A stretch of 64,000 nt of DNA from positions 2,528,001 through 2,592,000 of the forward strand of contig OZ244799.1 in NCBI GenBank assembly GCA_965219955.1, written 5' to 3'. The notes below the pieces were generated by a model. That model saw only the letters and a program-made list of their open reading frames with translations. It did not search any database and was not told the origin of the DNA. The position numbers and the translations under genes were made by a program. The stretch is from a bacterium. GTDB lineage: Bacteria; UBA8248. Shown here piece after piece: positions 746 to 35,710 of this stretch (the first letter of the stretch is position 1; the number at the start of each line of letters is the position of its first letter).

Positions 746-1050
746 GGGGTTGTTGAAAAACCCCCATTTCGTGATTCGGCGAACGAAACCGACCGGGGAG
801 AGGGCCCGCAGGGACAGGCCGCGACCTCGGACAGGCGCAGGAGCCTGTCCGCTACAAAAGCAACCCCCTTGTCAGGGCTGTTGAAAAAGTCCGTTAAAGG
901 AAGATTGGCGATTGTAGGGACAACCCTCCGTGGTTGTCCTGCCCTTCGTGGTTGTCCTTCGTCAGGACAGGCACGGAGGCCTGTCCCTACGGTGAACAAT
1001 TCGATGATCGGGATTCCCTCCCTCCTCGCGGAGAACTTTTTCAACGGCCC
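746..1050. repeat. MITE-like element(s) with GGGCTGTTGAAAAA terminal inverted repeats enclosing a GTAG-type REP doublet
   Basis: TIR-like ends at 746, 875-888 (gggctgttgaaaaa) and 1037-1050 (tttttcaacggccc). The internal GTAGGGAC...GTCCCTAC palindrome at 914-990 recurs at 10227, ~17854 and 24407. Confidence 0.75.
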
Positions 1051-1069
1051 CTCGATGCGGGAAAACCGC

Positions 1070-1310
1070 CGTCATTCCGGCAATCAATGCCGACCGAGGA
1101 GGGAGGGATTGCCCGGAATCCATTTTGACTTTTCACCGGGCAGGGCGGCCACGACCTTGTTGTCGCGCGGCGTCGAGATGCAGAACTCAGAAAATTCGCC
1201 TTTCGTTTTTGTCTTCGATTCCGCTCCCCTCCGCCCGGGATTAAATACGTCCAAACGAGGAGGCAAAAAGGCAAAGGCGAAAATGGATTCCGGCTTTCGC
1301 CGGAATGACG
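1070..1310. repeat. CGTC-type REP inverted pair
   Basis: cgtcattccggc...ccggaatcca (1070-1122) and tggattccggctttcgccggaatgacg (~1284-1310), matching the known CGTC REP pattern. Confidence 0.65.
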
Positions 1311-1342
1311 GCGCACTCACTGCCCTCGCACGCCATACTTCC

Positions 1343-1426
1343 CTCATCCCGAGTAGGCGCGCTTGCGCGCCGTATCGAGGGACGCGCCCCTTCGATACGC
1401 GGCTCCGCCGCTACTCAGGGTGAGGA
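1343..1426. repeat. REP-like palindromic doublet (TCATCCYGAG...CGAGGG / CCCTTCGA...CTCAGGGTGA type)
   Basis: ctcatcccgagtag...gtatcgaggg paired in inverted orientation with cccttcgatac...ctactcagggtgag. Confidence 0.55.
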
Positions 1427-1548
1427 AGGTGGGGCTTCGGCGCTGTTCGGGATGAAGTCGATACGGCGGCCAAAGCAGGACGAAGAAAACACACCCACTC
1501 CCGAAAAATGGCTCTTCAACAGCACCGAATCGGGCGGTCATGCGCGCC

Positions 1549-2310
1549 TCAGCCCGCGCGCTTGCGCTTCTCGTAAATCTTCTGCGCCCGTCGCAAGTCC
1601 TCCGGCGTGTTCACGCCCAGCGCCTCTTCGGGCGACGCCAGATCAAGGCCCTGGACAACGCGGCCCTCGGCGCGCGCGATGGGGAAAACGTCGGGCAGGT
1701 AGTACTCCCCCTGGTTGTTCCCGGCCCTGATCCTCGGCAGGGCGGCGCGCAGGAAAGCGGTCTCGAAGGCATAGGCGCCCGTGTTGATCTCGGTAATTGT
1801 CTTCTGTAAATCCGTCGCGTCCGCCTCCTCCACCACGCCGATGAGTTCCGCCTCCTCGCGCAGGGCGCGGCCATACCCGTGCGGCTCCCCCGCGACGGCC
1901 GTGAGCATGGTGGCCGCCGCATGCGCCTCCTCATGCAGGCGCGCCAAGCGCTTCAGAGTAGCCGTTCGTATCAGGGGCGCATCGCCGCACAGGAGATACA
2001 GATGCTTCGCCCCGGCGGGCAGGGCGGACAAGCCCACCTCGGCGGCATGGCCGGTGCCGAGTTGCTCTTCCTGAAGGGCGAAGACGACATCCCCGTCATC
2101 GCCCGAAAACGCCCGTTGAACGTCCCGGGCCCGGTGGCCCACGACGATGACGATGGGCCGGGCGCCTGATTCTCGCGCGGTGGTCACGACGTGGCGGATC
2201 ATGGGCTCCCCGCCGACCGGATGGAGCACTTTCGCCAGAGCGGTTCCCATGCGCCTGCCCTGGCCGGCCGCAAGGATGACGGCGGCGAACCCATCGCCTC
2301 GATGCGCCAA
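1549..2310 (-). CDS. GlmU-like uridyltransferase, N-terminal domain only (no left-handed beta-helix acetyltransferase domain)
   Basis: VILAAGQGRRM...KVLHPVGG, QEEQLGTGHA, GDAPLI, PHGYGR, EINTGAY, NNQGEYYLPD, GVNT motifs of GlmU. The protein ends at 253 aa. Confidence 0.85.
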   Translation of the reverse strand: MAHRGDGFAAVILAAGQGRRMGTALAKVLHPVGGEPMIRHVVTTARESGARPIVIVVGHRARDVQRAFSGDDGDVVFALQEEQLGTGHAAEVGLSALPAGAKHLYLLCGDAPLIRTATLKRLARLHEEAHAAATMLTAVAGEPHGYGRALREEAELIGVVEEADATDLQKTITEINTGAYAFETAFLRAALPRIRAGNNQGEYYLPDVFPIARAEGRVVQGLDLASPEEALGVNTPEDLRRAQKIYEKRKRAG

Positions 2311-2315
2311 AAAAC

Positions 2316-3704
2316 TTATCTCCGGCGGGAGGGGGAAGGCTTGGTGAGGCCGAATTCCAGGAGTTTTCGTCTCAGCGTGTTGCGGTTCATGCCCAGCAGG
2401 CGCGACGCCTGCACCTGGTTCCCGCCCGCTTCGCGGAGCACCAGTTCGAGCAGGGGTTTCTCGACGCTGCGGATGGTGTGATCGTAGAAGTCGCTGCTCT
2501 CCCCGTCACCCAGGGCGGTGACCACCGAGGAGAGCCTGTCGCGGAAAAAGCCCTCGATGTCACCGCCTCCCTTGCCCCGGGGCGTGGGGCTCAAGTCATT
2601 GAGCGAAATCGAGTTGCCCTCGCTCACGAGGAATGCGCGGCATACGGCCATCTCAAGTTCGGACTCGTTTCCCCACCACTTCTGCCCGGAGAACCAGTCC
2701 ATCGCCGCCGGCGTGATCCGCCTCCTCGGCTGCCCGATGCGGCTCGAGAATTCATCCAGAATCCCCTGGGCCACGAGCGAAATGTCCTTTTTTCGATCGC
2801 GCAGCGGGGGAATCTTGATGAAGCGGGTCGTCTCTTTGCGGTAAAGACGCTTGAGAATCGTGTCCTGTATCAGCCTTTCGGGGTCATGCGTGCAGCCGAA
2901 TATCACGCGGAACTCCCGGGAGAGGCTTTTTCCCCTCAACACTTTTGCCAACGCCTTCTGGAGATCCCGGCTGATGAGCTGGGCGTCTTCGATGAAGAGC
3001 GTCCCCCCTTTTTCGACGATGTCCCCCTCTTCGCCGCGCCTCTCTTCCATGCGCCTGATGGCCTTCTCCAGCGTCGAGGCGCGCCGCATCTTCGGCCCCC
3101 AGTGCAGGAACGGGTGCCTCCCGCCGGGATACTGGGAATGCAGCGCGCGGGCGACGAGCCTGAAATTCAGCCCCTTCTCCCCTTCGAGGAGAATCGTGCG
3201 GTATTTCTGCCCCGCAAGCTGGATCGAACGTCTAAGCCTCTCGGCCGCCGCGCTCGTTCCCTCGAACCGCCATCCCCCGGACTCTTCCCTCGCCTCGGTG
3301 CGAAGCCACCTGAGCTCCCTGCGAAGATAGCCCTCCTCGCTCAAGGTGCGTGAAAACTGGAACACTTCCTCGGGATGCACCTCGTCGACGAAAACGGCGC
3401 GCGCGCCCGAGCGGATGCTCGAGGGCGTGAATCCCTTGTCCTCGGGACGCAGCACCGCGGCGAAGGGCTTTCCCGTCTCCGCGATTCTCTGCATCGGAGC
3501 CGCTTCGGCGGTTTCAGCCGCCCCGTAAAGAATGAAGTCGCACCAGTTCATGCGCGAGCGCGCTTTGTTCGGGGTTTCGAAGTAAAGCGTCTCCATGCCG
3601 ATATTCCGCAAGCCGCCGAGCAAACCCTCTCTTCCGGGAGTCAGATGACCCACGAAGAGCGCCTTGGCGCGAGTCGCGTCCTTGTCGATCAAATTCACCG
3701 TCAC
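2316..3704 (-). CDS. Sigma54-activator-like (NtrC/Fis family) regulator with degenerate AAA+ domain
   Basis: IPPLRDRKKDI, WWGNESELE and a C-terminal Fis HTH (GNQVQASRLLGMNRNTLRRKL). Walker A is degenerate and GAFTGA is absent. Confidence 0.8.
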   Translation of the reverse strand: MTVNLIDKDATRAKALFVGHLTPGREGLLGGLRNIGMETLYFETPNKARSRMNWCDFILYGAAETAEAAPMQRIAETGKPFAAVLRPEDKGFTPSSIRSGARAVFVDEVHPEEVFQFSRTLSEEGYLRRELRWLRTEAREESGGWRFEGTSAAAERLRRSIQLAGQKYRTILLEGEKGLNFRLVARALHSQYPGGRHPFLHWGPKMRRASTLEKAIRRMEERRGEEGDIVEKGGTLFIEDAQLISRDLQKALAKVLRGKSLSREFRVIFGCTHDPERLIQDTILKRLYRKETTRFIKIPPLRDRKKDISLVAQGILDEFSSRIGQPRRRITPAAMDWFSGQKWWGNESELEMAVCRAFLVSEGNSISLNDLSPTPRGKGGGDIEGFFRDRLSSVVTALGDGESSDFYDHTIRSVEKPLLELVLREAGGNQVQASRLLGMNRNTLRRKLLEFGLTKPSPSRRR

Positions 3705-17133: not shown

Positions 17134-17358
17134 TTTTCGCTCTTTCCCTGAAGTGAGTCGTTGCGGACGAACACGTGCCCATACGCCTCAAAGGATATAC
17201 CACTCCCCGCCGAACCCCTCAAGCGATATCGTCTGAAAAGCGGGCGGAGGTATGCAAATATGCGTCCCCGCACGGAGAGGGCGAACGCCGCCGTGCTTCC
17301 TTGCGCGCGCGGGGCGCCCCAGTCTATAATGACTCGCTCTATACCGGAGGAACGGCGG

Positions 17359-17703
17359 ATGCCCGCATTCGACACGCTCAAGGCGACGAAACTGCTCAAG
17401 GCGTCGGGGTTCGAGGAGACCCAGGCGGAAGCCGTCGTGGCCACGGTGAGAGACGCCGTCTCGGACAACGTGGCCACAAAGGCCGACATGGGCGAACTGC
17501 GCGCTGAAATGGGCGCGTTGCGCGCCGAACTCAAGGCCGACATGGGCGAACTGCGCGCCGAATTCAAGGCCGACATGGGCGAACTGCGCGCCGAACTCAA
17601 GGCCGACATCGCCGAGTTGCGCGCGAGCATGTACCGCATGGTGTTGACCACCTCCCTGGCGGTCATCGGGGCGACCGTCTCCCTCGTCAAGCTGCTCCCA
17701 TAA
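17359..17703 (+). CDS. DUF1640/CCDC90-like small coiled-coil membrane-anchored protein
   Basis: FDTLKATKLLKASGFEETQAEAVV...ATKAD, (KAD)MGELRAE repeats and a C-terminal hydrophobic helix; RBS ggagg. Confidence 0.8.
   Translation: MPAFDTLKATKLLKASGFEETQAEAVVATVRDAVSDNVATKADMGELRAEMGALRAELKADMGELRAEFKADMGELRAELKADIAELRASMYRMVLTTSLAVIGATVSLVKLLP
17479..17622 (+). repeat. Intragenic 33-bp tandem repeat encoding KADMGELRAE(L/F)
   Basis: aaggccgacatgggcgaactgcgcgc occurs three times, plus degenerate units. Confidence 0.85.
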
Positions 17704-17727
17704 ACAAACGGGGCGATACCTCCGTTA

Positions 17728-17756
17728 TTGACGCTCCATACTTGCACATGTAGATT
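17728..17756 (+). promoter_or_regulatory. Sigma70-like promoter with no downstream CDS
   Basis: TTGACG-17 bp-TAGATT. Confidence 0.45.
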
Positions 17757-17797
17757 TTTCGTCGTTATCCGCTACGCCCGTAGGCGGGCATGTATTT

Positions 17798-17837
17798 CAA
17801 GGCCCTTCACGGATCACCCGTGGGGGGCCTTTTCATT
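17798..17837 (+). terminator. Intrinsic terminator hairpin
   Basis: aaggcccttcacgg-atcac-ccgtggggggcctt-ttcatt. Confidence 0.65.
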
Positions 17838-17853
17838 CCGGGCATGAGCCCAC

Positions 17854-17952
17854 AGGGACGACCCTTATGGGTCGTCCTGCCCTCCGTGGTTGTCCTTCGT
17901 CTTCATCGGAACGAAGGCCTCCAACAGGACAGGCACGGAGGCCTGTCCCTAC
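17854..17952. repeat. Degenerate GTAG-type REP doublet
   Basis: ggacaggcacggaggcctgtccctac right arm and ccgtggttgtccttcgtc spacer, as in the other copies. Confidence 0.7.
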
Positions 17953-18017
17953 GGGCCGGAGGACGGACAACGCGAGGAGGGCCTGTCCCCGCGTTTCGTT
18001 GCATTCTCTCCACGCAC

Positions 18018-18047
18018 AAAAAAACCGGGGGGCCGAAGCCCCCCGGT
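18018..18047 (-). terminator. Intrinsic terminator of porin-like gene A
   Basis: accggggggc-cgaa-gccccccggt with an A7 tract; exact inverted copy at 24199-24228. Confidence 0.9.
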
Positions 18048-18088
18048 CGTCGTCGCGTCAGTTGAGGACGCGAGCGTCCTTCATGTTG

Positions 18089-19318
18089 CTAGAAGATGTG
18101 GCGCAGCGTCCAGCCGACCGCCCAGCCGTCGTCGATCTCACCCTCGTCCACGCCTCTGCCGTAGTCGCCGCGCAGAATAACGGCGCCCACACCGCGAAGC
18201 TCGAGGTTCGAGTGGATCTTCCACTTGAAAGCGGCGTTGAGCTCAGTGCCGAATTCCTTCGCGTCCATCGTGTCCGCCGCGAGGGAAGGTTCGGCTGAAT
18301 TGTAGAGGGATACGCCGCCAGCCAGCGTCAGGGTCTTGCTGACCTTGAAGTCGGCCAGTCCCTCGATCACCGTCGCGCCGTTCAAAGCGCCCAGGTGCAC
18401 GCTTCTGATGCCGTTGCCCAGAGTCGTCCAGCGGCGCGAAGTCATGATGTGGCCGCCGAAGAACCAACCGGAACCGCCTTCCTGAGGCGTCCTGAAGCGG
18501 CCGTCTTCGCCTGCCTTCGTGCCGTCGTTGCCGGAGAGCATCGTGAGGTTGCCGCTGAGCTTCAGTTTGCCCAGGCTCGTGGAAGTCCTCACCAGAACGG
18601 CCCAACCCGAGAGCTCATCGCCGCTCGAGAGGTCACCTTCCTGGATGACGATGGAACCGTTCACGTTGAGGATGCCAACCTTGGTCTTGGCGTGGAGGCC
18701 CAAGAAGCTGTAGTCATAGCCGCCTTCCGCCGCGTCTCTCGAATTGGCCGCCCACGGCGTAACCGTGAGAGTCGGATTCACCTTGATGCCCACGCCGACG
18801 TAGTAGTCCGTCTTGTCATTGTTGTCGGGGCCGGTATCTTCGTTCGCCTTGGTCATGAACGCGCTGAGCGAGAGATTCTTGCTGAGCTTGCCGTAGATCG
18901 CAATGCCCGGCTCACGATGACGGCCGCCGCTGTCGTAGATTTCCTTGTCCGGCGAGAAGTAGTCCGTCCGACCCATGCGCATGCGAAGCGCGCTGCCCGG
19001 AACGGCGAAGTCGATCACCCAGCGGTTGACGCCGACCGTCTGCCGGCCGGGACCGATGGCGAAGCCGCCGTTCGCGCTTACGAACTCGGGTTCCCACACG
19101 GCCGTTACGGCGCCGCTTTTCGCCGTGAAGCGCGGGCGAATGAGCGCGTCCAGGTAATTTCTCTTGTCGTCTGCGTCATCGTCGCCGTCCGCATTGACGT
19201 TTTCGCTGGATCCACGCACCCGGAAGAAGCCGCTGAACTTGAGGTCGGCCGCGTACGAGGGCGCTACAAACGTCGCCAGGAGCGCCAGCGCAAATAGTGC
19301 TAACAGAAGTTTCCTCAT
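18089..19318 (-). CDS. Outer-membrane beta-barrel (porin-like) protein A
   Basis: Signal peptide (MRKLLLALFALALLATFVAPSYA), alternating beta-strand pattern, C-terminal Phe (WTLRHIF), strong RBS gaggag. Confidence 0.8.
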   Translation of the reverse strand: MRKLLLALFALALLATFVAPSYAADLKFSGFFRVRGSSENVNADGDDDADDKRNYLDALIRPRFTAKSGAVTAVWEPEFVSANGGFAIGPGRQTVGVNRWVIDFAVPGSALRMRMGRTDYFSPDKEIYDSGGRHREPGIAIYGKLSKNLSLSAFMTKANEDTGPDNNDKTDYYVGVGIKVNPTLTVTPWAANSRDAAEGGYDYSFLGLHAKTKVGILNVNGSIVIQEGDLSSGDELSGWAVLVRTSTSLGKLKLSGNLTMLSGNDGTKAGEDGRFRTPQEGGSGWFFGGHIMTSRRWTTLGNGIRSVHLGALNGATVIEGLADFKVSKTLTLAGGVSLYNSAEPSLAADTMDAKEFGTELNAAFKWKIHSNLELRGVGAVILRGDYGRGVDEGEIDDGWAVGWTLRHIF

Positions 19319-19405
19319 GTGTATTTCTCCTCATCGAGGTTTCACAAAAAAATGTTGCCGTCTTCCTTCACATGTTCTATGTCGATGTTCTATGTCTTGG
19401 ATTTG

Positions 19406-19462
19406 TCAATTGTTTCTGCATCCGTGCTTCGTCGTCTGCAACAGGGCTTCTCGCTCTCGCAT
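19406..19462 (-). CDS. Putative 18-aa leader peptide MREREALLQTTKHGCRNN upstream of porin A
   Basis: GAGGAGAGGGGGTG immediately before ATG; conserved homolog at 22747-22806. Confidence 0.45.
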   Translation of the reverse strand: MREREALLQTTKHGCRNN

Positions 19463-19580
19463 CACCCCCTCTCCTCAATGCTGCCCCGCACGTCGACAAG
19501 GTCCTATCGAGCGAACCGATATTTGTCGCTTGAATACTTTCCCATTGAAGAAAACCGTCATTTCATTCCCCATTTCCCAA

Positions 19581-19609
19581 AGAATAGAAAAGATGATCCT
19601 CTTTGTCAA
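19581..19609 (-). promoter_or_regulatory. Sigma70 promoter for porin A
   Basis: TTGACA-17 bp-TATTCT on the minus strand, located where homology between the two porin leaders ends. Confidence 0.7.
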
Positions 19610-19897
19610 CAAACAATCCCAAGGGAAATCCAAAAAAATCATTTCCTCAGAATTCGAATCTTCCCCTATCCTCCGGAGTGGGGCTAAAGGTTTAACAATC
19701 CTGAAATCAAGCCTTTACGAAAAATTTCGTGTCATAAAAAAACGACGTAAAATCTATCGCCCTGCCCAGGCCTTTGCATCCCGAGAAAAAATTTTTCGCT
19801 CACCGGGCGAAAAGGCGTCCAAAATAGGCCTTACGCCCCCTGAAAATCCGACCTGTATCCGTTCATCCGGCCTGCGATTCGGGCCGTCCGAGAAATC

Positions 19898-19955
19898 TTA
19901 TTCCCTGATCGTAGAAAAAAGAAGTGGCTTTTCCCGGCGGAGAACGGGCCGGAAT
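19898..19955 (-). other. Degenerate copy of the 3' end of the 24924-26852 gene (att-like remnant)
   Basis: ...gggaaaagccacttcttttttctac--gatcagggaataa versus ...gcgaagagccagcttttcttctacaagatcagggaatag, same strand, starting 17 bp after the recombinase stop. Confidence 0.6.
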
Positions 19956-19971
19956 CCTGCAGCCGACTTTC

Positions 19972-21144
19972 TCAGAATATATCTTCCGCGATACTCCCCG
20001 CAACCCGCTCCGCCGCCTCGTGCGCGGAATTGCGCGCCAGGTGCGCGTAACGCGCCGTGGTCTGCACGTGGGCGTGGCCAAGGAGCTTCGCGATGACGGG
20101 GAGCCCTTCTCCCAGCGCGAGCGCTCTCGAAGCGTAGGAATGGCGAAGGTCGTGGAGCCGCACGTCATCGAGACCCGCCCGCGCGCGGACGGGCCGCCAG
20201 ACGTGATCGAGGCTGCTCAGGCGCGCGCCCGGCTTCCTGCCGGAAATGACCCAGGGATTCCCCTCAACCCGGGGGAGGGCCGCCAGGAGCGCGACCGCCT
20301 GCGGCGGAAGCGGGACGACCCGCGCGCCCGTCTTGGAATCCGGCAGCCTCAGCTCACCCTCGTCCAGCGCCACGTCCTCCCAGCGGAGGGTGAGTATTTC
20401 GGACTTACGGCACCCGGTCAGCATCAGCAGGCGTATGGCGGCCAGGGCGGACGCAGGCGCCCCGCCCCGGTTCTCCATTTCTTCCAGAACGGATCCCAGG
20501 CGCGTAAACTCCTCATCCGTCAGGAACCGCTCCCTCTTGCGTTCGGGGTATTTCACGATCAGGCGGCAGGGGTTGCACCCCTCGGGCGCCAGGCCCCAGC
20601 TCTCGGCCAGCCTGTACATCGCATAGAGGATCCGGACGACCATGTTCGCAACAGCAGGCGTCTCGCAAAGGCCCTGGTGCAGTTCCGCCACCTGCGCCCG
20701 CTCCACCGCCATGATCGGCAGTTCGCCCAAAGCGGGCACGATGTGCTTCCGCACCACCGCCCTGGTCTTCGCGACGGTGCTCGGCTTACAGCGCACCGAG
20801 ACGTATTCGGTGAGATACCGCTCGGCGAGCGCCGCCACCCTGGGCCCGCCCGCGGGCTTCAGCCGCTTCGGGATTGCCTCCTCGCCCGCCTTGATACGGG
20901 CGATGATGAGCGCCGCCCTTTGGCGCGCCTGCTCGGCGCCGATCACGCCGTGGCGGCCCACCGCCACCCGCCTGGGCCCTCCCGGCCCCCGCGCCTGGGC
21001 GACGTAGACTTTTGAGCCGGTGGGATAGACCCTGACGCCGAAGCCTGTGAGATCCCGGTCCCAGAACACCGTATCCTTTTGAACCACAAGCTTCCCGACC
21101 GCCCGGTTCGAGAGCGTTTTCATAACGGGCTTCGCCGTTTTCAC
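19972..21144 (-). CDS. Tyrosine recombinase/integrase B1 (N-terminal arm-type DNA-binding domain)
   Basis: FWDRDLTGFGVRV arm domain; TGCRKSE, DSKTG, HDLRH, LLGH, TTARY catalytic set. GTG start overlaps the stop of A1 (GTGA). Confidence 0.93.
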   Translation of the reverse strand: MKTAKPVMKTLSNRAVGKLVVQKDTVFWDRDLTGFGVRVYPTGSKVYVAQARGPGGPRRVAVGRHGVIGAEQARQRAALIIARIKAGEEAIPKRLKPAGGPRVAALAERYLTEYVSVRCKPSTVAKTRAVVRKHIVPALGELPIMAVERAQVAELHQGLCETPAVANMVVRILYAMYRLAESWGLAPEGCNPCRLIVKYPERKRERFLTDEEFTRLGSVLEEMENRGGAPASALAAIRLLMLTGCRKSEILTLRWEDVALDEGELRLPDSKTGARVVPLPPQAVALLAALPRVEGNPWVISGRKPGARLSSLDHVWRPVRARAGLDDVRLHDLRHSYASRALALGEGLPVIAKLLGHAHVQTTARYAHLARNSAHEAAERVAGSIAEDIF

Positions 21145-22319
21145 TCGAGGTTCCCGTTCGTCAGGTGGGCGCCTATGCTCCCCCCCACCCGGGTGGCCGC
21201 CTCCTTCTCGGCCTTGAGCATCAGGTGCGTGTAGCGCGCCGTCGTCGTTACCGTCGCGTGTCCCAGGAGCTTGCCAATCGTGTAGAGGCTCTCGCCGAGC
21301 GCCAGAGCCCTTGACGCATAGGAGTGTCTCAGGTCGTGGAGCCGCAGGTCGGAGAGTCCCGCCCGCTCCCGGACAGGCCGCCAGTAGTAGTGAAGATCCG
21401 TAAGGTTCTTTCCCGGCTTCTGGCCGATGACCACCCATGGGTTGTCCGGTTGCCGGGGCAGCTTGTCGAGAAGCCCCCGCACGGGATTCGTCAGCGGAAC
21501 CATGCGGGGACCCGTCTTGGCGTCCCTGAGCCTGAGATCACCCGCCGTGCGGTCCACGTCGTCCCATTTGAGGCTCAGTATCTCGCTCCTCCGGCACCCG
21601 GTCAGCATGAGCAGCCTGATCGCCGTGATCGCAGGCGGCCAGATGGAGCCCGCCGCCTCGGCGTCTTTGAGCGACCGGCCCAGGCGACGGTATTCCTCGG
21701 ATGTCAGGAACCGCTCGCGCGGGCGCGTCCTGTAGAGCGTTAGTCTTCTGCACGGGTTCCGCCCGGGCGGGACCAGGCCCCACGCCTCGGCCAGGTTGAA
21801 CATCCTCGAGAGGAGATGGATCGACGTGTTGACCCGGCTCGGCGTATGGCGGAGGCGGTGCTGAAACGCGGTGAGTTCCGCCCGTCCGATCCGGGCCAGC
21901 GCCATCCCGCCCAGGACCGGCAGGACGTGTTTGTCCAGTATGGTGCGGTATTCCACGACGGTGCGCGGCTTCAGGTGCCTTTCCACGTAAACGCGCATGA
22001 AGCGCTCGGCAACCGCCGCCAGGGTGGGTTCCTCCACGGGCGGCTCAAGCCCGGGGTATTCGCCCCGCTTGATGCGGTCGATGACGAGGGCGGCCTGCTT
22101 TCTTGCCTCCCCGGTCGACAACGCCCCGTGCCGGCCTAAAGTAACGCGTTTTATCCCCCCGGGCCCGCGGGATTGCACCACGTAGGATTTCCTGCCCGCA
22201 GAGTGGACGCGCACCCCGAAGCCGGCCAGGTCCCGATCCCAGAAGAGGGTGTCCCGGTTCTTGGTTTTGAGCGCATCGACAGCGCGCTTGGTGAGCCTGA
22301 ACTCACTCCTTCTGGGCAT
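21141..22319 (-). CDS. Tyrosine recombinase/integrase A1 (N-terminal arm-type DNA-binding domain)
   Basis: LTKRAVDAL...FWDRDLAGFGVRV; TGCRRSE, DAKTG, HDLRH, LLGH, TTARY. Start ATG 22319 gives 392 aa, the same length as the paralog at 33366. Confidence 0.93.
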   Translation of the reverse strand: MPRRSEFRLTKRAVDALKTKNRDTLFWDRDLAGFGVRVHSAGRKSYVVQSRGPGGIKRVTLGRHGALSTGEARKQAALVIDRIKRGEYPGLEPPVEEPTLAAVAERFMRVYVERHLKPRTVVEYRTILDKHVLPVLGGMALARIGRAELTAFQHRLRHTPSRVNTSIHLLSRMFNLAEAWGLVPPGRNPCRRLTLYRTRPRERFLTSEEYRRLGRSLKDAEAAGSIWPPAITAIRLLMLTGCRRSEILSLKWDDVDRTAGDLRLRDAKTGPRMVPLTNPVRGLLDKLPRQPDNPWVVIGQKPGKNLTDLHYYWRPVRERAGLSDLRLHDLRHSYASRALALGESLYTIGKLLGHATVTTTARYTHLMLKAEKEAATRVGGSIGAHLTNGNLE

Positions 22320-22346
22320 GGCCCCCCTCGCTGGGCATGGCCCCTT

Positions 22347-22461
22347 CGCTCGACATGTCATCAAAACGCATATCAGCGACATCAGTCGAGAGCGCGTTTA
22401 CGCATGAACAGGCACGCTCTCTCACGCTCGACATGTCATCAAAACGCATATCAGCGGCATC
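22347..22461. repeat. 37-bp direct repeat (78-bp period) in the recombinase promoter/leader
   Basis: cgctcgacatgtcatcaaaacgcatatcagcgRcatc at 22347-22383 and 22425-22461; the core is also present once upstream of the second recombinase pair. Confidence 0.85.
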
Positions 22462-22473
22462 GAATGTGAGCGT

Positions 22474-22502
22474 ATTCAAGCACAAACACGGCAGGCGCGC
22501 AA
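22474..22502 (-). promoter_or_regulatory. Putative promoter of recombinase pair 1
   Basis: TTGCGC-17 bp-TTGAAT, positionally aligned with the TTGAAT-17-TATAAT promoter at 33250. Confidence 0.45.
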
Positions 22503-22746
22503 GAGGCGACGATAAGGAAAATATCGAATTAAAGCAAATAATAACAAATCTTTACATTGCATGAGTACGCTCAGTCGCAACATCCCCGGAGTGATCAGTT
22601 CCTTTCAGTATTACATCTATTCTTTGAGAGATAAAGCACGGAACGGCTGTTTTTTTCAGATGGGGAATTGTCTGCATAAGCGGCAAATACCGGTTCGCAA
22701 GATGGAACCTTGTCGGCGTACGGGGCGGTATGGAGGAGAGGGGGTG

Positions 22747-22806
22747 ATGCGGGAGCGGGAAGTCCTGTCGCAGACGACGAAGTACGGATGCAGCGACACC
22801 GATTAA
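22747..22806 (+). CDS. Putative 19-aa leader peptide MREREVLSQTTKYGCSDTD upstream of porin B
   Basis: Same purine-rich RBS and reading frame as 19406-19462, with two synonymous CGA/CGG changes. Confidence 0.45.
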   Translation: MREREVLSQTTKYGCSDTD

Positions 22807-22873
22807 ACCAGACACAGAACACGAAGGAAGACGGCAACATTTTTTAGTGAAACCTCAATGAGGAGAAATACAC

Positions 22874-24157
22874 ATGAGGAAACTTCTGTTAGCACTATTC
22901 GCGATGGCGCTCGTCGTGGCGTTCACCGCGCCCTCGTACGCGGCCGACCTCAAGTACAGCGGCTTCTTCCGGGTGCGTGGATCCAGCGAAAACGTCGAAG
23001 GTGACGACGGAGACAAGAAAAATTATCTGGACGCGCTCATCCGACCGCGCTTCACCGCGAAGAGCGGCGCCGTCACGGCCACATATGAACTCGACTTCTC
23101 GTCGTCGTATACTGGAAAACTTGACGATGATAACGAATTAGCGACTAATACGCATGCTGGCGCGAACGGCGGATTCGGCACCGCTGGTCGGCACAATGTG
23201 GGTACGAACCGCTGGGTGATCGACTTCGCCGTTCCGGGCAGCGCGCTCCGCGTTCGCATGGGCCGGACGGACTACTTCTCGCCGGACAAGGAAATCTTCG
23301 ACAGCGGCGGTAAGCACCGTTTGCCGGGCATTGCGCTTTACGGCAAGTTGAGCAAGAACATGTCGCTCAGCGCGTTCATGACCAAATCGAAAGAAGACGC
23401 GGGTGGCAGCAACGATGACAAGACGGATTACTACGTCGGCATGGGCATCAAGGTGAACCCGACGCTCACGCTCACGCCGTGGGCGGCCAACACCAGAGAC
23501 GCTGCGGCCGGCGGCTATGACTACAGCTTCCTCGGTTTCCACGCCAAGACCAAGGTGGGCATCCTGAACGTAAACGGTTCTATCGTCATCCAAGAGGGTG
23601 ACCTCTCAGTCAAGGACGGAGTCCAAAAGGAACTCTCGGGTTGGGCCGTACTGCTCAGGACTTCCACCAGCCTGGGCAAACTGAAGCTGAGCGGAAACCT
23701 CACCATGCTCTCCGGCGATGACGGCTCCAAGGCCGGCGAGGACGGCAGCTTCCAGACGCCTCGGGGAGGTAGTTCCGGCTGGTTCGTCGGCGGCCACATC
23801 ATGAGTTCGCGCCGCTGGACGACTCTTGGCAACAGCATCAGAGACAGAGAACTGAAGAAAATGAACGGCGCGGTCGTGATCGAGGGACTGGCCGACTTCA
23901 AGGTCAGCAAAACTCTGACGCTGGCTGGCGGCGTATCCCTTTATAATTCCGCCGAACCTTCCCTCGCGCCGGACACGATGGACGCGAAGGAATTCGGCAC
24001 CGAGCTCAACGCCGCTTTCAAGTGGAAGATCCACTCGAACCTCGAGCTTCGCGGTGTGGGCGCCGTTATTCTGCGCGGCGACTACGGCAGAAAAGTTGAC
24101 GAGGGTGAGATCGACGACGGCTGGGCGGTCGGCTGGACGCTGCGCCACATCTTCTAG
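22874..24157 (+). CDS. Outer-membrane beta-barrel (porin-like) protein B, paralog of A
   Basis: Same signal peptide type and near-identical C-terminal ~65 aa; differences cluster in short loop-like segments. Confidence 0.8.
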   Translation: MRKLLLALFAMALVVAFTAPSYAADLKYSGFFRVRGSSENVEGDDGDKKNYLDALIRPRFTAKSGAVTATYELDFSSSYTGKLDDDNELATNTHAGANGGFGTAGRHNVGTNRWVIDFAVPGSALRVRMGRTDYFSPDKEIFDSGGKHRLPGIALYGKLSKNMSLSAFMTKSKEDAGGSNDDKTDYYVGMGIKVNPTLTLTPWAANTRDAAAGGYDYSFLGFHAKTKVGILNVNGSIVIQEGDLSVKDGVQKELSGWAVLLRTSTSLGKLKLSGNLTMLSGDDGSKAGEDGSFQTPRGGSSGWFVGGHIMSSRRWTTLGNSIRDRELKKMNGAVVIEGLADFKVSKTLTLAGGVSLYNSAEPSLAPDTMDAKEFGTELNAAFKWKIHSNLELRGVGAVILRGDYGRKVDEGEIDDGWAVGWTLRHIF

Positions 24158-24198
24158 CAGCATGATGGACGCTCGCGTCCTCACCTGACGCGACGACG

Positions 24199-24228
24199 AC
24201 CGGGGGGCTTCGGCCCCCCGGTTTTTTT
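24199..24228 (+). terminator. Intrinsic terminator of porin-like gene B
   Basis: accggggggc-ttcg-gccccccggt-tttttt. Confidence 0.9.
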
Positions 24229-24336
24229 GTGCGTGGATGTATGCGCGGCGTCCTCGCGACTTTTTTCTATTATCGCTCCCCCCTTAGGATCATTCTCTCT
24301 TCGACCGGAAATGAATGTTTGTGCAGGGGGCGCAAT

Positions 24337-24527
24337 GGGGCTGTTGAAAAAGCCTGATGCGGGATCGGCGGCAAGGAGGTTCACGCGGCGCAGACGTGAT
24401 GGTTTTGTAGGGACAGGCCTCCGTGCCTGTCCTGCTCTTCGTGGTTGTCCTTCGTCAGGACAGGCACGGAGGCCTGTCCCTACGGCGAACAATCTCGAAG
24501 GTCGGACAGGACTTTTTCAACAACCCC
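24337..24527. repeat. MITE-like element with TIRs enclosing a GTAG-type REP doublet
   Basis: ggggctgttgaaaaa...tttttcaacaacccc; internal perfect arms gtagggacaggcctccgtgcctgtcc / ggacaggcacggaggcctgtccctac (24407-24483). Confidence 0.8.
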
Positions 24528-24542
24528 GCCCTCTCGAATCGA

Positions 24543-24569
24543 CACGCATTTCCCCGCAATTGCCGTCAT
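24543..24569 (+). repeat. 27-bp motif shared with 33022-33048
   Basis: cacgcatttccccgcaWttgccgtcat, 26/27 identical. Confidence 0.75.
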
Positions 24570-24923
24570 TCCCAAATCCGCGGACTGCGCTATCGTGCGC
24601 GCGACGCGGGGAAGGGGTTTTTCCCCGGCGGATTGAGACGCACGGAGAGGAAGCTTTCGCATGGGATGCAGTGATGGAACGGGGAAGAATTACGAAAATG
24701 GATTCGGGAACGGCGCGGAAATAAAAATAATGATATTTTCTGTAAAATTCGATAAATTCAGGGGGTTTTTCGATAAATTCCTGAAATTCACTTCCCGCTT
24801 AACGGTTTGTAATACAAAGGGTTATCATATAAATATGAGCGTCGTGCACTCAGATAAGGCGGTGAAAAAAGTTTTCGGCGCCCCCGCATTTGCCCGCGCC
24901 GGGAGCCGGCGGCGCAAAGAACG

Positions 24924-26852
24924 CTATTCCCTGATCTTGTAGAAGAAAAGCTGGCTCTTCGCGCCGACCAACGGTCTCGAACTCGTCGTCGCCACCACGA
25001 GATCGTCGTAGCCGTCGTTGTCCGCGTCGCCGAAGGTGAAATCCACGATCCCCCGGCCCAGTTTTCTCGAGCGCCAGGTCTCGGTCAAACCGCTGCCGTC
25101 CCAGAGCAGGCTCGCGATCTGCCCGCTCGAAACGCCCAGGCCCGGCGCAATGGAGGCAACGTATTCGTTGCGGATCACCAGAACCTCATCCACCCCGTCC
25201 CTGTCGACGTCTTCAACCAGCACGCGCGAGCGTATGGGGAGATCCGGTGTATGAACCCTGTCACCGGTGTTTTCCGTATTGGCCAGGGAGAAGAATCTAT
25301 GGACGGGCGCGCCGTAGGTTTCAGAGCTCGAGTAGATATCCTGGCCGCTCCTCGAGAACACCCTCAGCCTGTCGTCCTTCCCGACCTCGATGACTTCCTG
25401 CGAGCCGTCCCTGTTGAGGTCCCACAAGCCGAAGCCCAGTATCGTCAAATCCGGCGGAAGCGCATAAGGGGCGGCGGGCGCGAGTTTCCCCCCCGACCAG
25501 CGATAGCTGCGGATGGGGCCGTCGAAAGCGCTCTCGATCCCTTCACTCTGCCCCAGAAGCAGATAGGCTTCCGAGCCAGGAATCTTCTTGCCCTTCTCGG
25601 GCCGCCGCACCCGTATCAGGCGATAAAAAGTCCTGTCGTTCCGGACGAGGGGCGTGAACTTCCCGCCCTTGAACTGCAGGATCATCGAGAACAACTCGTT
25701 CGAGCGATAAGAGGCGAGGTAGAACTCGGGCGCGCCGTCTCCGTTCATGTCGGCGACGTCGAGCCAGCGGAAGTCGTTCGCCGCCCCGCCGTCGAAGCGG
25801 GCGACCTCGCGCATCCGGTTCTCCTCGAAGCGGTTGACGATGACCTCGGTCGGCGTGATGAGAACGACTTCGTTTTTCCCGTCCCCGTCCACGTCCGCCA
25901 CGGACAGCCCCCGGAATACGGCCTTGTCGAACGAGTAGCTTTTCTGGCCGCCTCCTCTGTTTGGTACGCCCTCGCGGGCGAGCACGAAATTCTCGTTCGC
26001 GGGTCCTGCGCGCGTCTCGCCGCCGCCTCGCTTGAGTTCCTGCACCGTGGGCGGGCCCTGTTCGAAGGGCAGTTCATCCGCAATGGCCACGGCCTTGAAG
26101 AGTTCTTCCTTCGTGGTGAGGGACAAAAGGCGGGTGGAGAGAATCTTCTTCCCCCGGATTTCGCGGAGCTCGTTCTCGAGCGCCATGTCGCTCCGCACCT
26201 GGTTTCGCAGGCGAATCGGATTCTCTTTTTCAAGAATTTCATCGGTGGCGACACCCGTCTCGAGGAGCCATACCTGGAGCCTGTCCACGTCGTATACGTC
26301 GAAGCGCCCGCTCCTCAGGAGCTGGCGTCCGAGTTCCCTCGTGAGCGTCTCCATGCTGACGGCTTCTTTCGTCTGATTGACGAAAGGCAGTATCGCCAGG
26401 CGAATTTTCGAGGCGGACATGCGCACCGTGTCCTTGACGCGCGGCGAGAGTTGGCCGCCCGGCGCAAGGCGGACAAGACGCGCGATGGAGAATTTCTCCC
26501 GCACCTCGACGACCTCGATCTCGCCTACCTCCTCTTCCAGCTTGCCGAGAACGACGCCCGTCGTCGGGTGGCGAAACGGCGCGCCCTCGCGGTAGACGCT
26601 CAACTTGACGCCCTTGACCACCTCATCCTTCTCGCCGAGGCTCAAGTAGAGATCCGCCCCTCTGACGGCGACCACCGCGCCGCGCAGATTCGGGAATCTC
26701 TGGTGCAGCTTTTCGCTGATGAGACCGAGGGCCTTGCGGTAGTCGTTCTCCTGGGCGTGGGTCGAGCCGCCGGATGCGCAGAGGACAATCATGAAGGCCA
26801 GCAGGAAGGCCGGCGCCTTCTTAAGGAGGTGAGAGAACATGAAAAACCCCAT
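24924..26852 (-). CDS. Exported protein with FlgT/CsgG-like N-terminal region and FG-GAP/VCBS beta-propeller repeats
   Basis: Signal peptide; DVDGDGKNEVV, DMNGDGAPEF, DLNRDGSQEV, DVDRDGVDEV, DADNDGYDDLV repeats. Start uncertain. Confidence 0.72.
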   Translation of the reverse strand: MGFFMFSHLLKKAPAFLLAFMIVLCASGGSTHAQENDYRKALGLISEKLHQRFPNLRGAVVAVRGADLYLSLGEKDEVVKGVKLSVYREGAPFRHPTTGVVLGKLEEEVGEIEVVEVREKFSIARLVRLAPGGQLSPRVKDTVRMSASKIRLAILPFVNQTKEAVSMETLTRELGRQLLRSGRFDVYDVDRLQVWLLETGVATDEILEKENPIRLRNQVRSDMALENELREIRGKKILSTRLLSLTTKEELFKAVAIADELPFEQGPPTVQELKRGGGETRAGPANENFVLAREGVPNRGGGQKSYSFDKAVFRGLSVADVDGDGKNEVVLITPTEVIVNRFEENRMREVARFDGGAANDFRWLDVADMNGDGAPEFYLASYRSNELFSMILQFKGGKFTPLVRNDRTFYRLIRVRRPEKGKKIPGSEAYLLLGQSEGIESAFDGPIRSYRWSGGKLAPAAPYALPPDLTILGFGLWDLNRDGSQEVIEVGKDDRLRVFSRSGQDIYSSSETYGAPVHRFFSLANTENTGDRVHTPDLPIRSRVLVEDVDRDGVDEVLVIRNEYVASIAPGLGVSSGQIASLLWDGSGLTETWRSRKLGRGIVDFTFGDADNDGYDDLVVATTSSRPLVGAKSQLFFYKIRE

Positions 26853-27062
26853 ATCAGTAACGTGTTTTAGAGACTCCGGTCGAGCCGCCAGCGCTCTGAA
26901 GCAGAGCATGGCCCCGGATAATCAATCAGCCGTTGTATGATATCATGATTTCGAAGACAGAAAGCCCCAAACACCCTCAAATATACCGCGTAAGAAGCAG
27001 AAAGCAAATTTATTCAGGCCGTTCGGAAAGCCGGTCCGTCCAGGCGCAGGCTGCGTTTCGCC

Positions 27063-33278: not shown

Positions 33279-33365
33279 GGACTCATATTTGATGCCGGAC
33301 GTATGCGTTTTGATTACGGATCGTCCATATCCTCCGGCTTGTGACACAATTTCCGGGGAGCGCCC

Positions 33366-34544
33366 ATGCCGAAAAGAAGCGAACGCAAGCTTACCAAACG
33401 CGTCGTCGACGCGCTATCCGTCGAGAAGGACGACGGCGTCTTCTGGGACCGGGAACTGGCGGGTTTCGGGGTGCGGGTCTACGCCACGGGCCGGAAGGTC
33501 TACGTGGTGCAATCGAGAGGGCCGTGGGGCCCCAGGCGCGTGACGCTGGGCCGGCACGGCGAGATGTCCACTGATGAGGCGAGGAAACAAGCCGCACTCG
33601 TCATCGACCGCATCAAGCGGGGCGAGGCACCCGAACCCAGGCCGCCCGAGGCGGAACCCACCGTGGCCGTCCTTTGCGATCGCTTCATGCGCGACCACGT
33701 CGAGACGCACTGCAAGCCCGATACCGCCGCGACCTACCGCTCCTATATCGGGAACCACATCCTTCCGGCGCTGGGCGGGAAGGCGCTCGCCGATGTCGGC
33801 CGGGCGGAGGTATCGGCGCTTCATCACGACCTGCGCGCGACGCCCGTCGCGGCCAACGTGATCCTGGGACTGCTCTCGAAGATGTTCAAGATGGCCGAGG
33901 CGTGGGGCCTGGTTCCGGCCGGGGAGAACCCCTGCCGGGGGCTTCGCCGCTACAGGACGCGCAAGCGGGAGCGGTTCCTGACGCCAGAAGAGTTCCGCCG
34001 CCTCGGAGGTGCGCTCCGTGACCTGGAGGTAGAGGGGAAGACGTGGCCCCCTGCCGTCGCAGCGATCAGGCTCCTGGCGCTGACCGGGTGCAGGCGGGGC
34101 GAGATACTGGACTTGCACTGGGACGACGTGGACCGCACGGCGGGGGAGTTGAGGCTCAGGGACGCCAAGACGGGTCCGCGCATGGTTCCCCTGACCAAAC
34201 CCGTATTGAGGGTGCTGGAGGGGGTTCCCCGCTCGCCGGACGATTCCTGGGTGATCTCCAGAGGGAACGGGAAGGACCGCCCGTTGAGCCTCTCCTACTA
34301 CTGGGAGGCCGTGAGGGAGCGGGCGGGGTTTCATGATGTCCGCATTCATGACCTCCGGCACTCGTACGCCAGCCGGGCGCTGGCGCTCGGCGAGAGTCTG
34401 TCTGCGATCGGCAGGCTGCTCGGCCACCGTCACGTGGTGAGCACGGCGCGCTACGCGCACCTGATGCGAGAGGCCGAGAAGGCGGCGGCCGCCCGCGTGG
34501 GCGAGAGCATCGGCGTCCATGTCACGAACGGGAGGGTCGAGTGA
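33366..34544 (+). CDS. Tyrosine recombinase/integrase A2
   Basis: Arm domain plus TGCRRGE, DAKTG, HDLRH, LLGH, STARY. Confidence 0.94.
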   Translation: MPKRSERKLTKRVVDALSVEKDDGVFWDRELAGFGVRVYATGRKVYVVQSRGPWGPRRVTLGRHGEMSTDEARKQAALVIDRIKRGEAPEPRPPEAEPTVAVLCDRFMRDHVETHCKPDTAATYRSYIGNHILPALGGKALADVGRAEVSALHHDLRATPVAANVILGLLSKMFKMAEAWGLVPAGENPCRGLRRYRTRKRERFLTPEEFRRLGGALRDLEVEGKTWPPAVAAIRLLALTGCRRGEILDLHWDDVDRTAGELRLRDAKTGPRMVPLTKPVLRVLEGVPRSPDDSWVISRGNGKDRPLSLSYYWEAVRERAGFHDVRIHDLRHSYASRALALGESLSAIGRLLGHRHVVSTARYAHLMREAEKAAAARVGESIGVHVTNGRVE

Positions 34545-35710
34545 TGACGAAGTCCATGATGAAAACGCTCTCGAACCGTTGGGTCGCGAAACTGAAAGTC
34601 AAGAAGGACACCGTGTATTGGGATCGCGATCTCACCGGCTTCGGGGTGCGGGTCTACCCCACGGGGAGCAAGGTCTATATCGCCCAGGCGCGCGGAACCG
34701 AAGGACCGAAACGGGTGGCGGTGGGCCGCCACGGCGTGATCCATGCCGATCAGGCGCGCAAGCGCGCGGCGCTCGTCATCGCGCGCATCAAGGCGGGCGA
34801 GGAACCTGTGCCTGAGCCGATGAAGCCCGCCTGCGGTCCCACGGTGGCCGAGCTCGCAAGGCGCTATCTCGCCGAATACGTATCCGTGCGGTGCAAGCCG
34901 CGCACCGTGAAGACGCTCCGCTCCGTGGTCGGCAGGAACATCGTGCCCGCGCTGGGCGCGATGCCGATATCCGCGGTCGAGCGCAAACACGTGGCGGAAC
35001 TCCACCAGCGGCTGAGCGCCACGCCCGCGGCGGCGAACCATGCCGTCCGGGCGCTGTCCGCGATGTACCGCCTCGCAGGTGAATGGGGTCTCGTGCCCGA
35101 GGGCGTGAATCCGTGCCGCGCCATCGCCGAATACCCGGTCGGCCGCCGGGAGCGCTTCCTCACCGAGGCGGAATTCATGCGTCTGGGAAAAACGCTTGAC
35201 GAGATAGAGGCCGGGGGCGGCGCGTCCGCGAGTGCTGTGGCGGCGATCAGGCTCCTGATCCTGACCGGGTGCCGGAAGTCGGAGGTCCTCACGCTGCGCT
35301 GGGAGGAGTTGGCGCTCGATCAAGCGGAACTGCGGCTCTCAGACTCCAAGACGGGCCCGCGGGTCGTTTCGCTCTCAGAGCCCGCGGTGAAACTCCTCGC
35401 GGGTCTGCCGCGCACCCCCGGCAATCCCTGGGTGCTCCCCGGCAGGAAGCCGGGTACGCACCTTCGGAAGCTCGATGACGCCTGGCAGTCCGTCCGCTCG
35501 CGCGCGGGGCTTCACGACGTGCGCCTCCATGACCTGCGCCATTCGTTCGCCTCGAGAGCTCTCGCGCTCGGCGAGGGGCTTTCCACGATAGGGAAATTGC
35601 TCGGCCACGCCCGGATCGAGACCACCTCGCGCTACGCGCATCTCGCGCGCGATTCGGTGCGCGAGTCCGCCGAGCGGGTCGCCGCGAGCATCGCCGAAGA
35701 CCTGCTGTAG
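34541..35710 (+). CDS. Tyrosine recombinase/integrase B2
   Basis: Arm domain plus TGCRKSE, DSKTG, HDLRH, LLGH, TTSRY; GTGA overlap with A2. Confidence 0.94.
   Translation: MMTKSMMKTLSNRWVAKLKVKKDTVYWDRDLTGFGVRVYPTGSKVYIAQARGTEGPKRVAVGRHGVIHADQARKRAALVIARIKAGEEPVPEPMKPACGPTVAELARRYLAEYVSVRCKPRTVKTLRSVVGRNIVPALGAMPISAVERKHVAELHQRLSATPAAANHAVRALSAMYRLAGEWGLVPEGVNPCRAIAEYPVGRRERFLTEAEFMRLGKTLDEIEAGGGASASAVAAIRLLILTGCRKSEVLTLRWEELALDQAELRLSDSKTGPRVVSLSEPAVKLLAGLPRTPGNPWVLPGRKPGTHLRKLDDAWQSVRSRAGLHDVRLHDLRHSFASRALALGEGLSTIGKLLGHARIETTSRYAHLARDSVRESAERVAASIAEDLL

Follow-up and report, generated by a model that had tools for sequence, protein, structure and literature searches.

Most known cases in which DNA inversion switches a surface protein come from pathogens and gut commensals. 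At the sap locus of Campylobacter fetus, opposed homologous surface-protein genes flank a segment with a single promoter, and their conserved 5′ regions serve as the recombination substrate; this inversion is reportedly RecA-dependent, with no recombinase genes in the invertible segment. In the fim switch of Escherichia coli, two tandem paralogous tyrosine recombinases, FimB and FimE, are associated with a promoter element that can invert and has short inverted repeats at its ends; neither recombinase is known to have an arm-binding domain, and both are encoded outside the 314-bp element, which gives ON/OFF control of one operon. The vsa/vpma loci of Mycoplasma, which encode lipoproteins of wall-less bacteria, have one expression site and intact reserve genes without promoters, each of which can be joined to the promoter by site-specific inversion at the conserved sequence on its 5′ side; they rely on a single recombinase and are not known to form mobile islands bearing a duplicated target site. 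In Dichelobacter nodosus, Omp1 inversions choose among outer-membrane protein variants. Published accounts treat Mycoplasma vsa/vpma-type loci with a Xer-like recombinase (PMC2268961) and invertible promoters and SusC/SusD outer-membrane-protein shufflons in Bacteroides fragilis (PMC4747536). Here we analyze a 64,000-nucleotide stretch of DNA from an uncultured Nitrospinota sponge symbiont (the window; contig OZ244799.1, positions 2,528,001 to 2,592,000), in which two porin genes, porA and porB, are arranged head to head around two tyrosine integrase genes, int1 and int2. The genome is metagenome-assembled (4.28 Mb, single contig) and holds these two porin copies only; the sequencing runs that contain DNA of the locus are sponge, coral and marine metagenomes.

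By analogy, the porin locus would be closest functionally to C. fetus sap and Mycoplasma vsa/vpma, and it also resembles fim. It departs from sap in having two integrases within the segment, a unique part that contains the −35 but not the −10, and an island-borne second gene; from fim in that the recombinases carry Arm-DNA-bind_3 domains and lie inside a 3-kb segment, and in that the choice would be between two alternative genes; and from vsa/vpma in having two recombinases and a mobile island with a duplicated target. The B. fragilis and D. nodosus systems likewise select outer-membrane protein variants by DNA inversion, but they use other recombinase (sub-)families and short dedicated inverted repeats, with no tandem arm-type pair. 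With lambda/P4-type islands the locus shares arm-domain integrases at an island end within the 3′ end of a gene, an orphan gene end being left behind, and with the tandem-recombinase elements (RIT, BIM and Tn554-like) it shares several recombinase genes in tandem as a mobile module; to our knowledge, a split promoter common to an island and a resident paralog has not been reported. A further account (PMC9345347) describes elements that have two tyrosine recombinases. The locus is set apart by its split promoter, arm-type integrases inside the segment, island origin and exchange between species. Full-text searches, confined to the main articles, found no description of this locus, of a two-gene Arm-DNA-bind_3 integrase module, or of a porin cassette without a −35.

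One complete promoter and two junction states

A preliminary description of this DNA had placed two porin open reading frames (ORFs) in a ~1.6-kb imperfect inverted repeat, with near-identical 3′ ends and terminators, leader homology that stops at a shared −10 box, and a TTGACA 17 bp upstream for porA only; all of these features were recovered. Both genes were taken from the ORF list: porA (18089-19318, minus strand, 409 aa) is the resident type A porin and is coupled to the full promoter, and porB (22874-24157, plus strand, 427 aa) is an intact, island-borne porin cassette 85% identical to porA. Alignments delimit a ~260-nt 5′ untranslated leader for porA that is conserved across the genus (19319-19577, minus strand) and a corresponding leader for porB (22627-22873, plus strand). 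In 50-column windows the identity of the two copies is 90-100% across the final ~350 nt and terminator, falling to 18-68% in a few short segments; leader and signal peptide are 80-98% identical. A repeat finder resolved the inverted repeat into paired arms at 18009-18384/23862-24237 (376 nt at 95%), 18404-18616/23630-23842 (88%), 18627-19048/23186-23607 (85%), 19183-19369/22823-23009 (90%), 19411-19531/22678-22798 (85%) and, innermost, 19546-19588/22616-22658 (72%). The terminators lie at 18023-18048 (minus strand) for porA, where an 11-pair stem followed by a T run falls within the 95% arm and is near-identical to its porB counterpart, and at 24198-24223 (plus strand) for porB, as located by a terminator scan.

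In the alignment, the upstream homology of porA and porB begins at an 11-bp core, TCTATTCTTTG, which contains TATTCT and has exactly two matches in the window, both at the upstream ends of the porins. Core A (19578-19588, minus strand) holds the putative −10 of porA (TATTCT, 19581-19586), forms the inner end of the inverted repeat and is the proposed crossover site; core B (22616-22626, plus strand) holds a −10-like TATTCT at 22618-22623 and has no −35. The −35 TTGACA of the sole complete sigma-70-type promoter (19604-19609, minus strand; 10/12 matches, 17-nt spacer) lies in the unique middle segment. A promoter scan returned TTGACA-17-TATTCT at 19609..19581 on the minus strand as its single 10/12 site and no site before porB, with four sites in the region against 1.3 ± 1.2 in shuffled sequence. 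As in an inverton, inverted repeats (the 11-bp cores) thus bound the segment, and an outward-directed promoter part lies within it, the −35 being inside and the −10 in the repeat as judged by consensus and conservation. The earlier statement that the interval holds just two intact tyrosine recombinases is correct for the recombinases, both of which are intact, but two other stretches are present in the interval: ~310 bp of DNA ancestrally upstream of porA, and an orphaned piece from the 3′ end of an FG-GAP gene. On the porB side, the region from int2 to core B (22320-22615, plus strand), here called the N side, has no −35 and is homologous to DNA found upstream of int2 in other int2-int1 elements.

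This division of the promoter recurs among relatives. When 16 porin upstream regions from 10 genomes were aligned, the core was common to all 16 and homology always began there; ten regions have the form GTTTGTTGACAAA-17-TATTCT, including those of all four single-porin genomes, and the remaining six carry the N side and no −35. The GTTTGTTGACAAA motif is conserved in all ten promoter-type regions and in further loci, and once the latter are counted there are 14 promoter-linked and 9 N-linked porin genes, none of the nine N-linked copies having a −35. Exactly one porin with a full promoter is present in each of the eight genomes that carry an N-linked porin: G000, G011, G013, G016, G020, G014 and G021 have one promoter-linked and one N-linked gene, and G012 has one and two, respectively. 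Porin types are not tied to either state. For type C, the copy in G013 is N-linked, and an 88% identical one is the only porin of G008, where it has the promoter; N-linked copies of type A occur in G020 and G012, and the D-type porins of G012, G020 and G021 are linked to the promoter.

The two states are also visible as a reversal of the middle segment. With the flanking aminotransferase gene placed at the left, G000, G011, G013, G016 and G012 share the order porin (−), −35 side, int1 (−), int2 (−), N side, porin (+). In G020 the order is porin (−), N side, int2 (+), int1 (+), −35 side, porin (+), so that the segment is reversed and the −35 faces the other porin; the two porins of G020 are only 48% identical, which makes a misassembly there unlikely. 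A scan of metagenome contigs yielded 23 loci with a single close relative among them, contig L121, which is close to G020. Identity between L121 and G020 is 95-96.5% from the end of the aminotransferase gene across the porin and its entire leader to the core; there the sequences part, the unflipped L121 leading into the −35 side and int1, and G020 into the N side. L121 and G020 are identical from TCTATTC-TTTGAG onward, and in G020 each leader keeps its own version of a one-T difference immediately after TCTATTC, which places the exchange within ~7 bp (TCTATTC). G012 has an A-type porin and leader attached to the N side at the core, with a D-type porin under the promoter. A single orientation among relatives, which the preliminary description had named as grounds for abandoning the idea, is therefore not what the genomes contain, G020 being flipped with its break in TCTATTC. 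In these relatives, then, the middle segment has been joined to either porin.

A mobile island and its integrase pair

Four relatives (G002, G022, G008 and G014) have an empty site, in which a single porA-like gene, with no integrases, adjoins FG-GAP/TPR genes; its flanks are aminotransferase/serA on one side and FG-GAP/TPR on the other. These genomes align with the window over 18007-19747/19850 and then jump to 24924, so the DNA between ~19.9 and 24.9 kb is an insertion. The ancestral porA upstream DNA that precedes it (19610-19898, minus strand) is collinear with the single-porin genomes G002 (to 19747) and G022 (to 19850) and includes a terminator-like hairpin found by the terminator scan (19793-19813, minus strand). 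At the left island junction, the final ~55 nt of the FG-GAP gene recur as an orphan copy (19899-19957, minus strand) that abuts the int1 stop and gives rise to a direct repeat (19899-19924/24925-24950); the copy is degenerate, and G016 retains a 69-nt copy of window positions 24924-24992 beside int1. The 3′ end of the FG-GAP/LpoB-like gene itself (24924-26909, minus strand; Pfam assignment) is the insertion site as defined by the empty sites. Since CTCGAACTCG at 24976 matches CCGGAATCC in the orphan copy, the right junction would lie near 24976-24990, in which case the present last ~50 nt of the FG-GAP gene would be island-borne. We had considered the FG-GAP stop region CTATTCCCTGA as an attachment (att) core shared with the promoter core CTATTCTTTGA; this candidate was dropped, as the island junction lies ~50 nt further in.

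So delimited, the insertion is an island of ~5.0 kb consisting, in order, of int1, int2, the N side, core, leader, porB, terminator and repeat units, the last in a tail (24224-24923, no strand assigned) with multicopy 28-nt palindromic units at 24407-24434 and 24456-24483, recognized by the repeat finder and by contig depth. An orphan gene end of this kind is characteristic of integrase-mediated insertion into the 3′ end of a gene. The locus thereby presents what is expected of an integrative island: an empty target site in relatives, and a duplicated target at both ends with an integrase adjoining one of them. Synonymous divergence (dS) of the integrases between G000 and G016/G012 is 0.10-0.13, compared with 0.30-0.40 for the flanking serA and aminotransferase genes, and this approximately three-fold difference indicates that the island has been exchanged between species. 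It is also found elsewhere. In G014, ~16 kb separate the island from the resident porin, with TPR, ThiC and luciferase-like genes in between, and there (L034 3222-6539) an IS66-family transposase gene is inserted in the N side, between int2 and the island porin. G012 carries a third porin (L152, G012:C2:1064000-1080000) that is N-linked and lies beside FG-GAP/TPR, 1.6 Mb from the main locus and with no integrases nearby; it has a complete N side, with two full motif repeats and part of a third, indicating a large rearrangement broken at the boundary of N side and int2.

The two recombinase genes, int1 (19972-21123, minus strand) and its upstream partner int2 (21141-22319, minus strand), encode tyrosine integrases with arm-binding N-terminal domains that are 52% identical to each other. 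Their likely starts, 21123 and 22319, make both shorter than the longest ORFs, and the start MPRRSEF of int2 agrees with that in other elements. Both exceed the PF00589 (Phage_integrase) cut-off of 27.1 bits, int1 at 83.2 bits (2.5e-23) and int2 at 74.1 bits, and both have Arm-DNA-bind_3 and SAM-like domains above cut-off. Their alignment contains the motifs LTGCR(K/R)SE, HDLRHSYAS, LLGHA and TTARY in each protein, which we take to be the catalytic R...H-x-x-R...H/W...Y residues. The ratio of nonsynonymous to synonymous divergence (dN/dS) is 0.12-0.38 over both integrases (int1 0.12-0.36), as would be expected of genes under purifying selection.

Related pairs are widespread. A search with int1, for which 80 loci were fetched with one genome per species, gave int2-int1 loci from Nitrospinota, Alpha- and Gammaproteobacteria, Gemmatimonadota and others, mostly sponge-associated metagenome-assembled genomes. 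In these loci (L031-L110) the two genes lie ~20-60 nt apart, and the module is often multicopy and sometimes in tandem arrays; one genome has module copies that are 98% identical across 3.5 kb, of which ~1.1 kb lies upstream of int2. Total int2/int1 matches number 12 in G000 and 20-23 in G002, G012 and G020, and the porin-linked pair is present once per genome. In a quick maximum-likelihood tree of 40 int2 sequences, the seven porin-linked int2 sequences form one clade (SH-like approximate likelihood-ratio test 99) with two sub-lineages, G000/G011/G016/G012/G014 and G013/G020. Conservation of ~230 nt upstream of int2, including GTCATCAAAACGCATA, among int2-int1 elements marks the N side as element DNA. 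The two integrases are no dedicated invertase pair but the core of a widespread multicopy mobile module, and with porB they make up an integrated island.

Within the N side, GTCATCAAAACGCATA occurs twice as a direct repeat (22357-22372 and 22435-22450), ~170-270 nt from core B, and the two copies are candidate arm-type sites. The motif has three matches in the window, a number reached in none of 100 shuffles; the third precedes the int2 of a second int2-then-int1 element at 33366-35710 (plus strand), whose genes are 66% and ~52% identical to the porin-linked pair and whose own upstream motif reads GTAATCAAAACGCATA (33302-33317). An empty site for this second element was not found, the synteny in G002, G022 and G008 simply ending near 32.9 kb. 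No clear common core emerged from the int2-upstream regions of 13 other int2-int1 loci and of the copies in two genomes. In G016 (L024 11457-11987), an int2-like gene (66%) lies ~700 nt downstream of the right-hand porin at a contig end and may belong to a further element.

Porin fold, variable loops and neighboring features

The porins belong to the 18-strand outer-membrane channels (OprD/Occ, AlgE and MOMP-like) at the level of predicted fold, sequence families being below threshold. Pfam Porin_4 matches porA only, with 21.3 bits against a cut-off of 27, a SlpA_C match is also under its cut-off, and NCBIfam DESULF_POR1 reaches 48.4 bits against a cut-off of 250. An AlphaFold2 model of porB built from 18 homologues is an 18-strand barrel (predicted local distance difference test 72.9, predicted template-modelling score 0.71), and its best Foldseek matches are AlgE, the C. 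jejuni MOMP and OccK/OprD (E 1e-15 to 1e-11), with template-modelling scores of 0.65-0.67 to AlgE and 0.59 to MOMP. A signal peptide, the predicted β-barrel fold and a C-terminal aromatic residue (the protein ends ...RHIF) are those of an outer-membrane channel, and a homologous porin is present in all 22 other genomes of the genus.

When the loops following odd-numbered strands of the porB model were taken as outward-facing, porA and porB differed at 51 of 152 loop residues, 27 of 227 strand residues and none of 23 periplasmic-turn residues, and the extra segment of porB fell in loop 2. The structure prediction thus bears out the earlier proposal that differences cluster in loop-like segments, in that they are concentrated in the predicted outward loops. 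Purifying selection extends to all parts of the locus, the porins included: dN/dS is 0.15-0.23 among porA orthologues and 0.20-0.31 for N-linked porins (porB 0.31 against its G011 orthologue, the G013 N-linked copy 0.20 against G008, G012 0.26, G020 0.24). All N-linked porins are intact, and no stop codons occur in any porin or integrase copy examined.

The ~250-nt porin leader is more conserved than the coding sequence across the genus, GAGAGGGGGTGATGCG...GAAGCCCTG for example being nearly invariant. An Rfam search of 17700-24800 (E ≤ 1) assigned it to no family, returning chance hairpin matches far under gathering scores, and RNAalifold on 15 leaders gave no support for a structured RNA, with 37 predicted pairs and compensatory changes in two of them. 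Beside both porin terminators lies a 28-nt perfect palindromic unit, CAGGACAGGCACGGAGGCCTGTCCCTAC (17925-17952, 24407-24434 and 24456-24483), which also yields spurious miRNA-like Rfam matches; the summed contig depth of its bin is 540-3080 over four runs, which marks it as a very abundant element resembling repetitive extragenic palindromes. Further left, a small coiled-coil protein with a CCDC90-like Pfam match is encoded at 17161-17703 (plus strand), with 33-nt tandem repeats at 17503-17624 (motif ADMGELRAE). This gene is present in G011; in several relatives the interval from the aminotransferase gene to the porin gene was not found to contain it.

A proposed promoter swap and its alternatives

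We tentatively propose that the locus undergoes a promoter-swap inversion at the core, probably catalyzed by the integrases and probably infrequent, an account that we hold to be plausible and well short of secure. The resident porA keeps its ancestral sigma-70-type promoter, and a ~5-kb island, which entered the neighboring FG-GAP gene ~50 nt short of that gene's 3′ end, has brought in int2, int1, the N side with its candidate arm sites and a porB cassette without a −35. The two porins thus face away from a 3-kb unique segment holding the sole −35, and recombination between the 11-bp cores would flip that segment and hand the −35 to the other porin, inversion being the predicted outcome because the two cores are inverted. 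The island integrases may catalyze this as an intramolecular reaction, in which the N side and core B would be attP-like (phage-type) and the promoter core A attB-like (bacterial-type). One porin with a given set of surface loops would be made at a time and the other, presumably silent in the absence of a −35, kept as an intact reserve; flips would be infrequent, at a rate that is probably low. It is possible, though less likely than not, that the system goes further and acts as a mobile "plug-in" for surface variation, in which the island would import a reserve porin together with its recombinases and use the host −10 as an attB-like site, its own N side and arm sites being the attP-like counterpart; inversion by the integrases would then split and rejoin one promoter between the resident and the imported porin, with cassettes exchanged among sponge symbionts to form an expandable archive of alleles, for example the two reserve copies of G012.

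Several observations weigh against the proposed inversion. Orientation relative to the flanks is the same in seven of eight cases (G000, G011, G013, G016, G012, G021/L035 and L121) and differs in G020, a proportion that fits rare events, and L121 and G020 carry different island sub-lineages, so that more than one event separates them. The population data, which consist of the assembled contigs of four runs, contigs being a form in which minor variants are dropped, give one orientation: the porA-side junction is bridged by contigs of three runs, X5, X6 and X1, the last being probably the source sample, and the porB-side junction by contigs of X5 and X1; all follow the order of the window, and no strand-changing joint at 19586 or 22617 is reported in the run contigs, where rare variants are dropped. 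At the level of mechanism, inspection by eye of the sequence around the core revealed no clear core-type binding sites with dyad symmetry, the second int2-int1 element of the window has no flanking inverted repeats, and the adjacent int2-then-int1 pair is present in 63 of the 80 fetched loci, as a selfish multicopy module would be. The porA promoter is itself a putative assignment from consensus and conservation. Leader conversion has also taken place, the two leaders of G013 being identical and the island leader of G014 matching the resident one, and tracts of conversion stopping where homology ceases could be mistaken for a break at the core. The earlier suggestion that a flip moves the promoter from porA to porB is supported in part by the presence of both junction states among relatives, but the second orientation was not seen in the assembled contigs of any population.

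The same contigs speak to the alleles themselves. The X5 and X6 strains are ~98-99% identical elsewhere in the sequence, and one X5 contig spans 19007-23080 and one X6 contig 19305-22505. In both runs porA is covered and contig cover at a likeness of at least 93% is absent over the middle of porB (23081-23815, with no cover in either run over 23248-23815); this gap is read as a different right-hand allele, such that close strains differ in the reserve allele, and it suggests that the reserve allele turns over faster than the expressed one. The right-hand gene of X5 is porA-like beyond 23080, the single hint of the A/B chimeras that had been predicted. Three joints in the contigs (17901>24740 in X5, 17956>24337 in X1, and 24527>17000) were considered as excision or circle junctions and rejected; they lie in multicopy repeat units, and their listed sides are short (22-59 nt).

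Much of this evidence would also be accommodated by a static mobile island with no switching function, an explanation that we regard as possible and somewhat doubtful. In that case porB would be cargo, or would be expressed constitutively from a weak or activator-dependent promoter by way of its −10, and the differences between species would reflect rare homologous recombination, gene conversion or horizontal replacement between inverted paralogs. The empty sites in four relatives, the orphan end of the target gene and the integrases at one end all agree with it, as do the low dS of the integrases relative to flanking genes, which implies movement or exchange of the island between species, the porin islands at other sites in G014 and G012, the multicopy nature of the module and the single orientation in contigs of three populations; purifying selection on porB is equally expected of an expressed second porin. 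What a static island fits poorly is the placement of the boundary, as the homology of the cargo starts exactly between −35 and −10 in both island lineages and none of the nine N-linked copies has acquired a −35. Nor does it readily explain one full promoter in eight of eight genomes with the same porin types promoter-linked in some and N-linked in others, or a G020/L121 break that falls within 7 bp and has non-homologous DNA on one side, a poor substrate for RecA. A further alternative is a switch driven by RecA as in C. fetus sap, in which the integrases would serve island mobility only, and flips and cassette exchange would proceed by homologous recombination or gene conversion between the conserved leader/5′ and 3′ ends. 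The long conserved blocks at both gene ends (80-98% over leader and signal peptide, 90-100% over the last ~350 nt and terminator), leaders homogenized within genomes, coding sequences that appear swapped between G012 and G016 with their leaders in place, and the porA-like end of the X5 right-hand allele are all in its favor. The G020 junction, however, shows no chimeric leader, leader differences starting directly after TCTATTC, and the porin-linked integrases have been kept intact, in single copy and as one clade; we consider RecA-driven switching improbable. Least credible of all is an assembly artefact in which collapsed or joined strain haplotypes produced the inverted duplication. Although the window derives from a single metagenome-assembled contig and close strains with a different right-hand allele do exist, the order porin-integrase-integrase-porin recurs in independent assemblies of G011, G013, G016, G020 and G012, the X5 and X6 contigs described above span the middle in the same order, and the two copies differ by 15% in protein. 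The joining of two haplotypes, which had been raised at the outset as a possible source of the duplication, is thus extremely improbable.

Were the promoter-swap inversion to hold, a logic familiar from pathogens and gut commensals would operate in an uncultured Nitrospinota sponge symbiont, and on its main outer-membrane channel, the variable parts of which are the predicted outward loops that phages or host cells would meet. Such a switch would be unusual in having a promoter split such that the −35 moves with the segment and the −10 belongs to the repeat, and in using the arm-type integrases of an island instead of a small dedicated invertase; it would be equally unusual for the entire switching device to be itself horizontally exchanged. 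It would also give a role at the level of the host to one of the two-integrase elements, an undescribed family that is very abundant in the genomes of sponge symbionts. Even if no switching takes place at the locus, it is a record of a mobile island by which porin alleles spread from species to species.

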